A stretch of DNA of 43,259 nucleotides from assembly GCA_043729885.1 (NCBI GenBank), contig JAYTKZ010000040.1, positions 1-43,259 on the forward strand, written 5' to 3'. Of the stretch, positions 2,747 to 30,400 are shown one piece after another; within the stretch, counting starts at the first letter, position 1; each line of letters begins with the position of its first letter. The notes below the pieces were generated by a model. That model was not told the DNA's origin and made no database searches. It worked only from the letters and a program-made list of their open reading frames with translations. Source of the DNA: a bacterium (lineage in GTDB: Bacteria; Patescibacteriota; Gracilibacteria; Absconditabacterales; Absconditicoccaceae). The translations under genes and the position numbers were made by a program.

Positions 2747-3382
2747 ATGAGTTATAGTATATCAATCCATGATTCAAAAGGAAAAGTCGTAGAAAAGAAA
2801 GCATTAAATGCTGCTATCTTTGCCGACGAAAACATTAACGACTCATTAATTCATGAGTTCTATGTTTTGCAACAAGCAAATGCTCGTATTAATATTGCAC
2901 ATACGAAGACAAGAGGAGAAGTAGCTGGTTCTGGTAGAAAGCTGTACAAACAAAAAGGTACAGGTAATGCGAGAGTTGGTGCTGCTAATTCGCCTATTAG
3001 AAGACACGGATGAGTTGCATTCGGTCCTAGAAATACAACTAACTTCACAAAAGAAATGCCAAAGAAAATGAAGAAATTGGCTCTAGCGTGAATCCTTACT
3101 GTAAAAGCTAGAAACGACCAACTAATCGGTATTATAGACAATGCTCTTGATTCTATTAAAACTAAAGAAGCAATTGCTATGCTTCAAAACATAGGATTAG
3201 CAAACAAGAAAACACTTGTTGTTATACCTGAAAAAAATGAAGTAATTGAAAAATCTTTGAGAAATGTACCTAGAACAAAAATTATTACAGCTATGTATGT
3301 TAACCCAGTAGATCTTCTTCATTATGACAAAGTACTAGTGTTCGCAGGATCACTTGATAAACGAGATATATTATTTGCATAA
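2747..3382 (+). CDS. rplD: 50S ribosomal protein L4
   Basis: Joins track ORFs 2747..3013 and 3179..3382 in frame through TGA. KQKGTGNARVG motif. Confidence 0.92.
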
Positions 3383-3400
3383 AACATACAATATAGCCAC

Positions 3401-3428
3401 CATTTACTAGTCACTATTAACTATTTAC
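3401..3428. repeat. Exact 7-nt-period array ending 1 nt before the rplW ATG
   Basis: catttac tagtcac tattaac tatttac. Confidence 0.75.
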
Positions 3429-3429
3429 T

Positions 3430-3789
3430 ATGGCATACATTGATATCCTTAGACAAAGAGCAAAGAAAACATCTTCGACAAGTGCCTTAAAATCACTTAG
3501 TCCGTATGATATTATTATTGCTCCAGTACTAACAGAAAAAGCATACAAAGCATCAGATTCTGATAAGAAAGATGTTGGAAAACAATATTTTTTCAAAGTA
3601 CATTCAGATGCAAACAAGAATGATATAAAACATGCAATTCTTACAATCTATGGAGTTATTCCAGTAGCTGTAAATCTTCTTTGGGTAAAAGAAAAAGGAA
3701 GAGCTAACAGAAAACTTGTGAGAAAATCATATAAAAAAGCAATCGTTAGTGTTGCTGCATGAAAATCACTTCCTGTATTAGATGTATAA
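3430..3789 (+). CDS. rplW: 50S ribosomal protein L23
   Basis: Track ORF 3430..3762 continues 9 codons past a TGA to TAA. Position in the S10 operon. Confidence 0.88.
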
Positions 3790-17643: not shown

Positions 17644-18288
17644 ATGGAACTTATAGTAACAAGTCGTACTGTCTTTGGGAAAAAAGTAAATCGTATCCGC
17701 AAAGAATGATTAGTACCAGGTATCGTATATGGTAGACATTTAAAATCTCCATTAGCAGTACAGTTTGATAAAGTAGCATTTATCAAAACATATAAAACAA
17801 CTGGTGTATCTACTCCTGTTGATCTTACTGGTGACCAAAATGAACTTGTACTTATTCATCATGTAGAAACTGACCCAGTATCAGATGTGGTAATCCATGT
17901 TGATTTCTTGGCAGTGAAAGCAGATGAAAAAGTAAAAGCTTCTGTTGCGATTATAATGACTGGAATTGCTCCAGTTGAAAAAGATGGTATTGGTAAAGTT
18001 CAACTTGTTAAAGATCATATTATGGTAGAAGCTCTTCCAAGAGATCTTCCTCATGATATCAAAGTTGATATTTCAAACTTAAATACATTACAAGATGGAA
18101 TTTTCGTTTCAGACTTAGTAATTAGCGATAAAGTAACTATTCTAGATGACGAAGAATTACCAGTAGTAGTAGTATCACAATTACAAAAAGAAGAAGTAGA
18201 AGAAGTTGTTGCTGCACCAGCTGATGCTGCATGAGCTGCGACTGCTGCTGCTATAGAAGCTGAAAAAGCTGCTAAAAAAGTTGAATAA
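17644..18288 (+). CDS. rplY: 50S ribosomal protein L25/Ctc with an Ala-rich tail
   Basis: Extends track ORF 17887..18234 both ways. RKE-TGA-LVPGIVYG and IHVDFLAV motifs. Confidence 0.88.
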
Positions 18289-18323: not shown

Positions 18324-18512
18324 ATGGCAAGAGTATGTGACTTTACAGGAAAAAGAACTGTCGCTGGACACAATAGATCTCATTCAATGAGACAAACTAA
18401 AAGAACATTCAAACCAAATCTTATCAATAAGATGGTAGATCTTGGTGATGGTGTAAAAATTAGAGTTAAAATGGCTGCTAGTTTCTACAAGAAATACAAA
18501 ACAATGATATAG
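18324..18512 (+). CDS. rpmB: 50S ribosomal protein L28
   Basis: Intact track ORF; [33 protein letters not shown]. Confidence 0.93.
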
Positions 18513-18514
18513 AA

Positions 18515-18589
18515 GGAATCATGGATTAGGTATTAAGTATTAGTAACAATTATCATATTGCTAATACTTAGTACCTAGTTCTGAATTCC
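18515..18589. repeat. Long imperfect hairpin built from GTATTAG-type heptamers
   Basis: ggaatcatggattaggtattaagtattagtaac versus the reverse complement of attgctaatacttagtacctagttctgaattcc. Confidence 0.75.
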
Positions 18590-18596
18590 TGTTCTT

Positions 18597-18665
18597 GGGT
18601 CGGTAGCTCAGCTCGGTTGGTACCGAGTAAAGGGTAGAGCAGTTGGTGTTTACCAACCTGGTCGA
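18597..18665 (+). pseudogene. 5' fragment of a tRNA (acceptor, D arm with a 14-nt insertion, anticodon arm), truncated in the T stem
   Basis: gggtcggtagctcag..gagc, then gttgg-tgtttac-ccaac and ctggtcga; after that, unrelated sequence. Confidence 0.6.
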
Positions 18666-18700
18666 TAGAATATACTGAGAATAAAGTTAATAATTCCTAT

Positions 18701-18772
18701 GGGTCGGTAGCTCAGGGGTAGAGCAATGGCCTTTTAAGCCACTGGTCGAGGGTTCGAGACCCTCCCGACCCA
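18701..18772 (+). tRNA. tRNA-Lys (anticodon TTT), CCA not encoded
   Basis: Acceptor gggtcgg/ccgaccc, anticodon loop ctTTTaa, T arm gaggg-ttcgaga-ccctc. Confidence 0.88.
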
Positions 18773-18779
18773 AAAAAAG

Positions 18780-18805
18780 TCTCAGTCTTCGGATTGGGAT
18801 TTTTT
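18780..18805 (+). terminator. UUCG-tetraloop hairpin plus T run
   Basis: tctcagtc-ttcg-gattggga followed by tttttt; duplicated at 19178-19204. Confidence 0.7.
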
Positions 18806-18872
18806 CATTGTTTATTCTTTGTGATATATGATAATATTTTTATAATTCACTATTTATAAATTATAATCATCC

Positions 18873-19124
18873 ATGTATCAGTGATATTGTGTCTACCTAC
18901 TTACATGAACAAGAAATTACGTATGAAGTACTAATAACCTAGAAAGAAGACTAATAGAACATACTAGATGAGAATATTCAACTAAAAGGATATGAACTCG
19001 AAAGTTAACATGATATATCCCATGTGATACATTATTGATAGCAAGAAGATTAGAAAAGAAAATTAAACAACTGTGACATTATCAAATTACTATGTTGAAT
19101 CTATGAATGGTTGTGGGAGAGTAA
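18873..19124 (+). CDS. Small GIY-YIG nuclease-domain protein (83 aa)
   Basis: Code 25 gives M-Y-Q-G-YCVYLLTGTRNYVGSTNNLERRLIEH...ARRLEKKIKQ, i.e. GIY, YIG, RR..EH and E..IK motifs. 9 of 83 codons are TGA, so it is invisible in the track. Confidence 0.75.
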
Positions 19125-19170
19125 GTCGGTTAAACCGACCTGGTCGAAGGTTCGAGACCCTCCCGACCCA
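19125..19170 (+). pseudogene. 3' fragment of a tRNA (anticodon-arm-like hairpin, T arm, 3' acceptor strand)
   Basis: gtcggttaaaccgac ctggtc gaagg-ttcgaga-ccctc ccgaccc a. Direct repeat of 18742-18772. Confidence 0.65.
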
Positions 19171-19177
19171 AAAAAAG

Positions 19178-19204
19178 TCTCAATCTTCGGATTGGGGTTT
19201 TTTT
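19178..19204 (+). terminator. Second copy of the UUCG-tetraloop terminator
   Basis: tctcaatc-ttcg-gattgggg followed by a T run. Confidence 0.7.
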
Positions 19205-19311
19205 ATTGTTAGAATAGTCTATTGAGTATATACTCTTCCCCCTTGCTATTGCATATTTTAAGCATAGGCTATTTTTATAGGGAATATCTTTATCCCATTA
19301 CCTTACTTATT

Positions 19312-27446: not shown

Positions 27447-30400
27447 ATGGCTAATGCTGTACCACAAAGTTTTGAAGAACTAAATAAATCTACATTAGGT
27501 GATAAAAAGCTTAGTAGAGAGGAGATTTCTTATATGCAAGCAAAAGATGCTCTTTGGTATAAGGATATATCAAATTGATTACTTCTTGATGTGCAAGAAG
27601 TAAATAAACTTAGTTTAAGCAAAAATCCTACAGTTAAGAAAATTCTGGATTACTTAATTTTTCATCCTGATGTGTTGCTTAGTAAATTTAATAGTTTTGT
27701 GACACCCCAATTAAAAACTGCATTTAAAAAGATATTAAGCGATTCTGATGATTTTCAAAAACAATCTCTAGTCTTGAATGTTCTTTTGTTTTTATCATCT
27801 GCTAGTACAACGACTGACGAAAAGTCTGGTCTTATTCGCCCAGACTTGATTAACTTATTTTCAACTACTACTGTAAAATCGCTTCATAGATATCAAAAGA
27901 AGTATGAAAATACTTCTTGATGGTCTAAAGCAGATTGTATAGTATGACCAAAAACTATTCAGCAACTTATAGCAGACTGTGGTATGACGTTGCATGATGG
28001 AGTAACATGAACATCTGCAGTAACAATAGATAGTCAATTTAGTAAATCAAAATCAACATTGAAAGAATGATACTGATGGGCAAAAGATTCACAGATAGCA
28101 ATAGATGCTATTATGGCTGACCCAGCACTTGATGCAGTACAAAAAACACAAGAGATGATTAAAGTATGTAAAAAAACTACTACTGATCAAAAAGATGAAA
28201 AAAATGGAGAATCAAAAGATAAAAGATATGCAGCAGTTGTGCAAATGATATTAAAAGTTAAAACAATGTTAGCAGCTGCTGATGATGAAGGGAAGGTTCA
28301 AATTCTACAGTGCTTTGATAAAACATTTCAAAAAGAAATTTCTCAATATCGAAATAGTAAAAACTCTAGAGAAGATTTAGGTGTGTCTAAAAGTGATGAT
28401 TTCTGGAAAGAACTAAAAGAAGTGAAAGTAGAAAGTGAATCATGGAAAAATAAAATTAATCTAGCTCTATCTACAGCTAATCTTTGGAAATCATATATTC
28501 ATACCTGTGCCCCAAATGCTGCAGAAGAGTTTTGATCGCAAATTGACAAAGCAATTCAATGATTACAAAAACTTACACGCTATGATTGAGCTGACCATAC
28601 AAAAGAAATTACAGTACTTCTGAGTAAAGTATTTATAACATCTGAAGAATATAGAGTAAAACACAATTCTATATTCAAAGATAAAACGAATCACACAGTA
28701 CAACAATATTTGCTTAATACCATTACTTCACTTTTTGGAAAAAAGACTTGAGATGTTATAAAAGATGAAAATTGAAAAACAATAACTGTAGACTGGAGTA
28801 AGGGGATAGTTAATATGCTCAACATTATTACAACATCAATTAGAACGATTGATAAGAATTTTGATTGATGAATATTTGATCATTATCAAACATGAGAATG
28901 ATTAACACAAATGCTTGAATCAAATGATATAATTAAACCAAAAGATATTAGAATGACAGCTTGAAAAAATTTCGATCAATATAATAGCGATATGGATGCG
29001 ATGAAAGCACTGTTTACAACTATTCCAAATACTAAACTAAACACATTAATTAGCTCACTTGATAAAACTACTTCATCTACTCAAACGGTATACATTGAAC
29101 ATTGAATGAAAACAACTGAGACATCGTATAGTTTTGATAAAGTCGCATTAGACAAAGCATTAGTTGAAGTTGGGATTAACTGACTTTCTGCTGATTGTAA
29201 AAAAGATATGTGGGAGAAATATAAAAAGATGAAAGAAGAAGTAATTCCACAAGCAAAGAAAGAAGCTGAACAAAGTATTGATGGGATTATTAGTTCTTTT
29301 CAATCATCGGTTGATTTTCATACAAGACAAAACAATGCTGCTGTGATACCAATTATACAATCTCAAATTGATGCCCGAAAACTTTTCCGTGTATGAAAAT
29401 GAGAAATGCCTATAGACAATACAAATCCATTACTACAAGAAAATTTAAAAATGCTTTGATTGCCTGCATGATCAATAACTATGCAAACATTTACTGATAA
29501 CTTTATAAACACAAAACTACAACTTTCATCTGCTGCAGTACTTGAGCATTATATGACAGTATGAATAATGGATAAACACTCATGACTAATTGATGCTATA
29601 GAGTCTAAACAAAATAAAAATAGTTCTGAAAAAGTATTATCACTGTATGCTAATATTCATGGAGTATGATCTGGTTGGTCTGATGAAACATACAATACAG
29701 CTATGACTGTTGCTAAAGAAGTTACAATTATGGTTGTAGCTACAATTGCAACTATGTGAATAGGTGCAGCATTTAATGCGGCATGAAGAGCTGTCGTTGC
29801 TGGTGGTGAACTTATATTAGCGTCAGAGTGAGTTGATGTTGTATTAGTATCTAGTAGAGCAGCAGCACAAGTATTATCTAAAACACCATGACTTGCTACT
29901 AGGTTTGGGACGTGGGCAAGTAAATGGACTTCTATGGCTAAATTTTGTGCAAAAACATCACAGTGAATAAATGCCTTAAAGGGTGCAAATATAATTGGGA
30001 AATGAACAATATGATTAACAAAGATGGCTATTGAATGATCAGCTTTCCACTTTTCATCTACTGCAATGTCAAATGTACTTCATGGCCAAGAACGAAATCT
30101 ATGATTACAAGATTGGAAATGATATGCAAAAACATCATTGTTTTTGGGTGCATTCAAATATATCCATGGATGAGTTAATAAAATGATTGGATTAAATACA
30201 GAATCATGAATTACTAAAGCATTTACAACTCCTGCATCAATAGCAGGTAAGACGATAAATATATCAAAAGCATTTGTTAAATCAGTAGTTGGTGTATGAA
30301 CTGAAGCAGTCTCAATGACAGCAGTAGATATTCCATTATCATTAGTATTTGACGGGAAGATGCCTGATATGTCTGCTAAAGATTTAGCTCAAACATTATG

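Follow-up and report, generated by a model that had tools for sequence, protein, structure and literature searches.

How does a gene for a small GIY-YIG nuclease come to lie between two pieces of a broken transfer RNA (tRNA) gene, with an intact copy of the same tRNA beside it? We address this question for a 43,259-nucleotide (nt) stretch of bacterial DNA (hereafter the window; contig JAYTKZ010000040.1 of GenBank assembly GCA_043729885.1, family Absconditicoccaceae of the Gracilibacteria), in which an 83-codon open reading frame (ORF) for a GIY-YIG domain protein is embedded in a tRNA-Lys locus. On balance, we think it probable that a resident tRNA-Lys gene now houses a selfish cassette of minimal size, driven by its nuclease, which enters tRNA genes by recombination and keeps one working tRNA copy. 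Below, we dissect the locus, compare it with its counterparts in close relatives and in distant phyla, and weigh this reading against its rivals.

Organization of the tRNA-Lys locus

The locus contains, in order, a 5' part of tRNA-Lys (A), a spacer, an intact tRNA-Lys (B), a terminator, the GIY-YIG ORF, a 3' part of tRNA-Lys (C) and a copy of the terminator. Substitute hairpins are denoted H, and the loci or contigs used for comparison carry numbers preceded by L, the closest being L005, an independent assembly in which the ribosomal gene L28 is 96% identical at the nucleotide level. The features are as follows.

18597-18665, + strand: fragment A, a hairpin-substituted 5' copy of tRNA-Lys; the same piece is present in L005
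18612-18631, + strand: 20-nt insert in the D loop of A, consisting of the hairpin CTCGGT-TGGT-ACCGAG and then TAAA (-5.8 kcal/mol, z -5.5)
18642-18657, + strand: substitute hairpin H of A, GTTGGT-GTTT-ACCAAC, which replaces the Lys anticodon arm; identical in L005
18666-18700, + strand: spacer from A to the intact tRNA, conserved at about 90% in L005 and not present at empty sites
18701-18772, + strand: B, intact tRNA-Lys(UUU); ARAGORN tRNA-Lys(TTT) at 18700-18773, Rfam tRNA model at 18701-18772 (69.4 bits)
18774-18805, + strand: intrinsic terminator with a TTCG loop, part of the left copy of a 71-nt repeat
18819-18846, + strand: predicted promoter-like sequence TTGTGA-16-TATAAT, 5' of the ORF (10/12 match; -35 region 100% conserved in L005)
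18873-19124, + strand: GIY-YIG nuclease gene, 83 codons plus TAA, the stop codon sitting in the D-stem part of C
19114-19170, + strand: fragment C, a hairpin-substituted 3' copy of tRNA-Lys; its hairpin is identical in L005
19171-19210, + strand: second terminator copy and trailer, the right end of the 71-nt repeat

Several of these elements had been recognized in a first-pass annotation made from the letters of the window, and its placement of the intact tRNA with its terminator and of the 5' fragment is borne out. Fragment A is assembled from tRNA positions 1-15, the D-loop insert, positions 16-26, the substitute hairpin and positions 44-51, and it stops at ...CTGGTCGA, position 18665, within the 5' strand of the T stem; its first 16 nt (18596-18611) are identical to 18700-18715. 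The D-loop insert is missing from A of L005. Fragment C consists of the 3' strand of the D stem, hairpin H (19125-19139, GTCGGT-TAA-ACCGAC), the variable region, the T arm and the 3' strand of the acceptor, so that tRNA homology begins at 19114 and not, as the annotation had it, at 19125. The direct repeat of 71 nt also proved correct, its copies at 18742-18812 and 19140-19210 being 94% identical. The spacer carries a -10-like TATACT (18671-18676), paired with a TTTACC located in hairpin H.

Fragments A and C do not simply abut. A 34-nt segment is present three times at the locus (18632-18665, 18716-18749 and 19114-19147), and A and C therefore overlap by 34 nt; the core that they share comprises the 3' strand of the D stem, the hairpin, the variable region and the start of the T stem. 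In both fragments, the native 17-nt Lys anticodon arm has been swapped for a hairpin of about equal length. The two hairpins are a single compensatory pair apart (T-A to C-G) and have 6-bp stems with folding energies, as DNA, of -5.0 to -6.2 kcal/mol, against -2.7 for the native Lys arm. Because both copies have lost the Lys anticodon arm, joining A to C does not rebuild a functional tRNA, contrary to what the first-pass annotation supposed: ARAGORN makes no tRNA call on the joined sequence and, once the D-loop insert is deleted, returns just 'tRNA-???' with a 6-nt loop.

Between the repeats, the GIY-YIG gene is the sole ORF with family support or conservation, the remaining frames being short overlapping or antisense ones, and no recombinase is encoded there. 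A group I intron was considered and rejected, since Rfam detects no intron at the locus, whether with the gathering threshold or, for 18500-19300, with E<=10, and removal of the insert does not restore a functional tRNA. A transfer-messenger RNA (tmRNA) or another hidden RNA element was likewise dropped, as Rfam found no such family at the locus with either gathering or permissive thresholds.

Empty and occupied sites in close relatives

L005 repeats the layout of the window, element by element, from A through to the second terminator. The two genomes are near-identical in hairpins, spacer, tRNA and terminators, and the ORF is just 78% identical. Within each genome, B and C share specific changes (T-loop G in the window vs T in L005; seven vs six A residues), a co-variation that indicates gene conversion between the repeats.

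The search for an empty site, which the first-pass annotation had recommended, was successful. Ten related contigs (L024, L025, L032, L033, L034 and L036-L040) have one tRNA-Lys and a terminator after L28, and no A, ORF or C; the downstream membrane and/or rhomboid gene is reached in six of them (L024, L025, L032, L034, L039 and L040). The single tRNA of L024 and L025 is identical to B of L005 and differs from B of the window by one T-loop base (G for T in the window). In another relative, L031, the site begins with an intact tRNA-Lys, inside which the contig stops, and comparison with it shows A to border on the resident intergenic sequence upstream. Only the other occupied allele, L005, shares with the window the spacer and the segment that follows the first terminator. 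The empty sites thus uphold the earlier proposal that a segment with its own tRNA-Lys and the GIY-YIG gene sits in a resident tRNA gene; the accompanying idea of a clean landing in the T arm is at odds with the duplicated 34-nt core.

A-type copies are found in four lineages (window/L005, L028/L029, L035 and L041), and the occupied lineages stand beside relatives that have no A copy (L028/L029 vs L031; L035 vs L034; L041 vs L040). The hairpin differs from one occupied lineage to another (GTTGG..CCAAC, TCCCGAC..GTCGGGA, ACCTGC..GCAGGT). L035 has, relative to L034 (L28 98.9% identical at the nucleotide level), two 89-nt A units inserted at the 5' end of the tRNA, and no ORF. L028 (2776-2836) and L029 (2776-2815) have identical L28 and flanks, and a 19-nt D-loop hairpin is present in the A copy of L028 alone, which is a strain-level gain or loss of a small hairpin by itself. 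Hence, instead of the ancient and stable tandem duplication that the first-pass annotation had named as the contrary case, the insertion at the tRNA-Lys site is polymorphic among relatives.

Many contigs of the relatives (L026-L031, L033 and L041) end 80-300 nt past L28, in or just after the first tRNA-like piece. The assemblies appear to break at the repeated tRNA fragments, and occupied sites are therefore probably under-represented. In the window, L005 and L001, an ATTCCT leader stands before A and before B; it was considered as a marker of the element and discarded, given that the empty site of L040 has TTTCCTAT. A second pair of occupied and empty sites was sought in the lineage of L001, for which the relatives located via the neighbouring Mem_trans gene were not syntenic.

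The nuclease gene and its product

The source bacterium reads TGA as a sense codon, for Gly. With TGA as a stop, ORFs of at least 100 amino acids (aa) span 27% of the window, whereas long genes emerge when it is read as sense; the recoding of the genetic code is plain from a 1949-aa ORF at 27447-33296, which has 80 TGA codons in frame. Among L28 proteins with a name, the nearest are annotated as Candidatus Absconditabacterales. The ORF at 18873-19124 has the 83 codons previously annotated; the nine TGA codons then counted are eight TGA and one GGA. The Pfam GIY-YIG model (PF01541) matches residues 5-67 with 29.3 bits when TGA is translated as Gly (cut-off 22.6) and with 15.6 bits when it is translated as Trp, and one of the TGA codons corresponds to GGT in L005. 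The comparison with the L005 orthologue gives a ratio of nonsynonymous to synonymous substitution rates (dN/dS) of 0.19 at a dS of 0.88, on account of which we regard the ORF as a maintained gene and not, as had been allowed for earlier, a non-conserved one. Thus, judging from its sequence, this is a real gene evolving under purifying selection, with a predicted nuclease activity.

V7-Y8, Y16-V17-G18, R25/R26, H30 and E61 are invariant across the proteins of the window and L005 and a further homologue, P0002, and the catalytic residues align to the UPF0213 and SLX1 motifs. A profile search of the PDB matched the UPF0213 protein 1zg2 (BH0048; E 1.8e-5), the eukaryotic SLX1 7cq2 (1.1e-3) and 1ywl (EF2693; 6.5e-3), with no UvrC or I-TevI chain among the matches listed at E<=1. 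By these comparisons, the 83-aa protein groups with the SLX1/UPF0213 (stand-alone Slx1-like) clade, and, as a single minimal domain with no auxiliary domain, it agrees with the size of about 80-110 aa expected there. With TIGR01453, the group-I-intron endonuclease model of NCBIfam, the score is 21.7 bits (cut-off 56.05), and profile positions 5-41 only are matched. Seg/I-TevI proteins are longer and include a DNA-binding part. A homing endonuclease of that type was excluded: besides the sub-threshold TIGR01453 score, 83 aa, with the domain at residues 5-67, leave no room for a C-terminal DNA-binding domain, and the first-pass annotation was right to note that such an extension is missing.

Searches with tblastn of 50,697 phage and 72,556 plasmid records found no match to the nuclease, PHROGs had none for the window protein, and IMG/VR yielded a single weak viral match that is not adjacent to a tRNA. 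On the basis of these collections, an origin from a phage or plasmid was rejected.

Homologous loci in distant phyla

A pattern scan of one genome per GTDB species, with the ORFs of the window and L005 and with P0002 as queries, returned 18 loci, which resolve into one false positive and 17 true homologues, including two canonical UPF0213 genes (L015 and L023). In 15 of the 17, from about 10 phyla, a co-oriented tRNA gene lies 10-310 nt from the small nuclease gene; the two canonical UPF0213 genes have no tRNA neighbours. The tRNA-linked loci come from Gracilibacteria, Saccharibacteria, Microgenomates, Acidobacteriota, Bacteroidota, Planctomycetia and others, and involve tRNAs for Arg, Val, Lys, Ser, Pro, Gly, Thr, Met and Ala. 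In most of them, the ORF is flanked by partial copies of the neighbouring tRNA, the 5' pieces extending over positions 1-16 to 1-30 and the 3' ones from position 42 or 45 to the end. Where a copy lacks the 5' end, it always starts in the D loop; where the 3' end is missing, it stops in the T arm.

In the window, L001, L005-L008, L010, L013, L020 and L021, a hairpin of 16-18 nt, with 6-7 bp in its stem, takes the place of the anticodon arm. Extra hairpins occupy D loops in L009, L017, L018 and L020, and T loops in L006, L009 and L020. The full layout from A to C, with the same hairpin at both ends and the nuclease gene and an intact tRNA inside, is found in the window, L005, L001-L004, L006, L020 and L007. 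In L007, a DUF4238 gene (2826-3542; Pfam 78 bits) lies within this layout, between an intact tRNA-Ala and the C-type mimic, and the TAG at which it stops belongs to the D arm of that mimic (GG-TAG-AGC); this gene looks like cargo. Whole units are repeated in tandem in L014 and L016. L008 (2388-2493) and L010 (2787-2892) share a 100% identical tRNA-Val(GAC) and a 13-nt extended -10 promoter, cgtgtgctagaat; their C pieces are 92% identical and their ORFs cannot be aligned as DNA. The two metagenome-assembled genomes (MAGs), assigned to different phyla, bear the labels Baltobacteraceae and Acidobacteriota, and the sharing hints at joint travel of tRNA gene and cassette, or else at a mis-binned MAG. 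Some of the mimics are called as genes by ARAGORN, namely 2427-2500 of L007 as 'tRNA-Val(tac)' and the full-length mimic at 375-446 of L021 as 'tRNA-???(caaa)'. Taken together, these loci establish that the link of this nuclease family with tRNA genes and hairpin-substituted partial copies is general across phyla.

Within the window itself, the hairpin GTCGG-N4-8-CCGAC occurs three times, compared with 0.01 expected; because of this excess and of the same layout in an independent assembly, L005, the features of the locus cannot be put down to chance. The hairpin family (G/C)TYGGT-N3-4-ACCRA(C/G) occupies three sites in the genome, i.e., the D loop of A, the anticodon arm of A and C, and a relic next to tRNA-Phe, and in the window is confined to such tRNA-like pieces and one natural tRNA-Pro anticodon stem. 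The relic is the following.

93-156, + strand: ORF-less C-type relic directly 3' of tRNA-Phe, with GAGCAG, the hairpin GTCGGT-AAAA-ACCGAC (110-125) and a decayed Phe T arm and acceptor

Its parts are the 3' strand of the Phe D stem, the hairpin GTCGGTAAAAACCGAC and then the decayed arms, and it matches tRNA-Phe at 19 of 23 positions vs 15 of 21 for tRNA-Lys. The decayed copy reported by the first-pass annotation is thus real, although it was built from the 3' part of tRNA-Phe and is not a copy of the right junction of the Lys locus. It suggests a second, degraded cassette at another tRNA of the same genome.

How the cassette may have arisen

From what is observed directly, namely the anatomy, the insertion polymorphism, purifying selection acting on the ORF and the link, across phyla, with tRNA genes and hairpin-substituted partial copies, we infer a cleavage target, a repair route and a movement from cell to cell along the following lines. 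The cassette would extend from about 18642 to 19139 (0.5 kb), carry a working tRNA-Lys, its own spacer/promoter and terminator and the gene for the 83-aa nuclease, and be bounded on both sides by one 'tRNA-mimic core'; the resident tRNA-Lys gene would persist just as the outer parts of A (the 5' end) and C (the 3' end). The nuclease is proposed to break an unoccupied tRNA gene in or beside a stem-loop, whereupon the broken ends (tRNA positions 1-26 and 44-76) would be repaired on an occupied copy, in which the mimic arms bear H in place of the anticodon arm. Repair would copy everything between the arms and duplicate the core, and the predicted product, a resident 5' end with a core, the cassette, and a core with the resident 3' end, is exactly the arrangement from A to C. 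The internal tRNA would maintain the viability of the host. Later recombination among the repeated tRNA pieces could yield the units A-ORF-tRNA and tRNA-ORF-C as well as ORF-less relics (L035; 93-156 of the window), with gene conversion presumably keeping the repeats similar. Conserved D- and T-arm sequences could provide short homology for moves between tRNA species, and targeting of a universal tRNA motif, as by the phage endonuclease SegB discussed below, would explain such movement.

Several considerations weigh against this reading. Cleavage, excision and transfer of the cassette are putative, and the target specificity of an 83-aa protein is unexplained, given that it has no DNA-binding domain. 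The internal tRNA of L005 is the tRNA of the empty sites (that of the window is one T-loop base off), so that a nuclease acting on the anticodon arm would cut the cassette's own tRNA. The substitute hairpins are matched in length to the native arm (16-18 nt vs 17), and their perfect stems are kept by compensatory change; neither would be required of a pure resistance scar, which hints that a tRNA-like fold, as RNA or DNA, has a role. A-type units with no ORF nearby exist (L035); with no homologue in the phage and plasmid collections and one weak viral match, no vehicle between cells suggests itself; and, in the window's own lineage, the intergenic flanks are too diverged for the junctions to be placed at base level.

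The upkeep of the hairpins also speaks for a module that acts at the RNA level. Under this explanation, the hairpin-substituted copies would be transcribed tRNA mimics that serve as processing or stability elements of the nuclease mRNA, or as non-decodable decoys (an antidote) against a tRNA-acting nuclease, the latter version amounting to an addiction-type unit beside its tRNA; such a module could exist together with mobility. In more than 15 independent copies, the substitute arm has about the native 17-nt length and always a perfect 6-7-bp stem; a compensatory pair separates the hairpins of A and C; and, when the window is compared with L005, the synonymous sites of the ORF are less conserved than hairpins, spacer and terminator. 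To this can be added the full-length mimic of L021, called 'tRNA-???' by ARAGORN, and the report that a prokaryotic Slx1-like domain occurs fused to a TrmH tRNA methylase (PMC1564403). Yet A and C are each incomplete cloverleaves, devoid of the 3' or the 5' acceptor strand, a terminator stands between the tRNA and the ORF, and such a module would not by itself account for the insertion polymorphism and the tandem units. Furthermore, the characterized GIY-YIG enzymes, to our knowledge, cut DNA. We consider this explanation unlikely. The occurrence of one hairpin family at three different positions in the genome, the strain-level indel of the D-loop hairpin (L028 vs L029) and the T-loop hairpin inserts (L006, L009 and L020) would instead fit a hairpin-guided transposon, in the manner of IS200/IS605 or REP/RAYT, which inserts at stem-loops of tRNA genes and the hairpin ends of which are cut by a structure-specific nuclease, a property for which SLX1-type enzymes are known (PMC1564403). 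However, local tRNA sequence is found on both sides of each hairpin, which is thus not simply an element terminus, no transposase of the known hairpin-dependent type is present, the ORF being GIY-YIG and not HUH (Y1), and hairpin sequences vary widely among lineages, making this scenario improbable.

Two more conventional explanations fare worse. The 71-nt direct repeat of the tRNA 3' end and terminator is of the kind that integrative elements leave (PMC9897764), and the locus might accordingly be what is left of an integrase-type island or prophage that sat at a tRNA attachment site, the GIY-YIG gene being cargo that stayed behind. But there is no integrase, only about 0.4 kb separates the repeats, the 5'-side partial copies and the anticodon-arm swaps are left unexplained, and the same small layout and gene family recur at many tRNAs in many phyla, so that we judge a remnant of this kind highly improbable. 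Local tandem duplication and decay of tRNA genes near an ordinary housekeeping UPF0213 gene, i.e., sheer coincidence, draws on the existence of canonical UPF0213 genes with no tRNA neighbours (L015 and L023), but is confronted with tRNA adjacency at 15 of 17 loci, co-orientation of the tRNA with the ORF at 15 of 15, substitute stems that are perfect and not decayed, and a locus that is polymorphic among close relatives; it is hardly credible.

Comparison with known systems

One of the closest counterparts of the proposed nuclease-driven cassette is SegB of phage T4, a free-standing GIY-YIG homing endonuclease encoded in a tRNA gene cluster, which recognizes GGTTCRANTCC, a conserved motif of the T loop, cuts within tRNA genes by way of it and owes its inheritance to break repair with co-conversion (PMC2330249). 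In both systems, a GIY-YIG nuclease gene lies among tRNA genes. However, SegB belongs to the Seg/I-TevI family (PMC2330249), whereas the window protein is a lone 83-aa catalytic domain of the SLX1/UPF0213 type; SegB is a phage gene, whereas the cassette is chromosomal, with no phage or plasmid matches; and SegB loci have neither hairpin-substituted partial tRNA copies nor a carried replacement tRNA. The resemblance to SegB that the first-pass annotation invoked may therefore hold as an analogy of function but not as a family assignment. The UPF0213 proteins BH0048 (1zg2) and EF2693 (1ywl), the best-matching solved structures, agree with the window protein in size, in their single domain and in the GIY, YIG, Arg and Glu motifs. 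The stand-alone Slx1-like family has been described as vertically inherited, a putative repair protein (PMC1564403), and differs from the genes considered here in that there are no reports of its being linked to tRNA genes, mobile or flanked by tRNA mimics.

The nearest reported parallel is provided by the rRNA genes of candidate phyla radiation (CPR) bacteria, which contain sparse, non-intron GIY-YIG insertions, placed by the authors outside a homing context, and in which most insertions of all classes lie at the tips or bases of stem-loops (PMC11270868). These, too, are GIY-YIG ORFs inside structured-RNA genes of the same broad bacterial group and are not intron-like; but they reside in rRNA genes, no duplicated or hairpin-substituted host pieces have been described for them, and they carry no replacement gene. 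Integrase-driven islands and prophages regenerate an intact tRNA and leave a direct repeat of its 3' part. The cassette, by contrast, has no recombinase gene, is 10 to 100 times smaller, and is flanked on both sides by partial copies that reach through the D arm and in which the anticodon arm is swapped; because there is no integrase, the parallel with integrative elements drawn in the first-pass annotation is limited to the repeated tRNA 3' end. With IS200/IS605 and REP/RAYT, the likeness goes no further than the reliance on hairpins, there being no HUH (Y1) transposase here. Finally, in 'fractured genes', a host gene is split by a free-standing homing endonuclease gene and split inteins rejoin the protein product (PMC2677866); in the window, a host gene is likewise in two pieces with an endonuclease gene between them, but the split tRNA copy is dead, and what makes up for it is a spare tRNA gene brought along. 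The cassette would operate in the manner of a free-standing homing endonuclease, and its repeats resemble those left by an integrative element, but it belongs to neither family. In the open-access literature that we searched, the coverage of which is incomplete, there was no description of small GIY-YIG genes flanked by hairpin-substituted tRNA copies.

Gene neighbourhood

The tRNA-Lys locus lies downstream of two ribosomal genes and upstream of a membrane protein gene and a rhomboid gene.

17644-18288: ribosomal gene L25
18324-18512: ribosomal gene L28
19312-19464: lmo0937-like membrane protein gene, 50 aa
19680-20396: rhomboid gene

The lmo0937-like gene uses TGA codons for Gly and was overlooked by ORF calling with translation table 11; it is kept in L005, L024, L025 and L032, with a dN/dS of 0.06 relative to L005. 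Between the L28 stop codon and fragment A, at 18514-18590, there is an inverted repeat with 33-nt arms that are 79% complementary. It is partly conserved in L031, where the intergenic region leads directly to an intact tRNA-Lys and A is missing, and it therefore resembles a resident structure (a terminator or regulator of L28) that lies outside the cassette. A 23S rRNA gene at 40527-43259 runs past the end of the window (Rfam 2289 bits), and the two TCGG..CCGA hairpins within it are ordinary rRNA helices with no relation to the cassette.

Implications

The evidence points to a widespread small mobile element at tRNA genes, of which we found no published description in the literature searched. 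It is conceivable, and we advance it tentatively, that the loci described here represent a class of very small (0.4-1.2 kb) autonomous mobile elements present in many phyla and consisting of a bare SLX1-like GIY-YIG nuclease gene, a spare tRNA gene and a pair of 'tRNA-mimic' arms, each with a length-matched hairpin where the anticodon arm would be; they would enter tRNA genes through break repair and pass from one tRNA species to another via the universal D- and T-arm sequences. The mimic may, in addition, be a non-decodable tRNA-like RNA, a decoy or a processing signal. We know of no role for the small stand-alone GIY-YIG or UPF0213-like proteins, and the tRNA-linked loci offer a concrete and testable one for this large orphan family; if the class of mobile elements is real, part of the prokaryotic 'UPF0213' family is selfish and not housekeeping. 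The system is compact, with 83 codons and about 150 nt of structured DNA, and would lend itself to studying how a structure-specific nuclease that has no DNA-binding domain reaches its target; it might be turned into a small tool for targeting conserved RNA genes. The mimics can inflate or distort annotated sets of tRNA genes, as the ARAGORN calls in L007 and L021 illustrate. More broadly, the cassettes would be a new source of tRNA-gene variation, one that would explain duplication, split copies and 'odd' tRNA calls.

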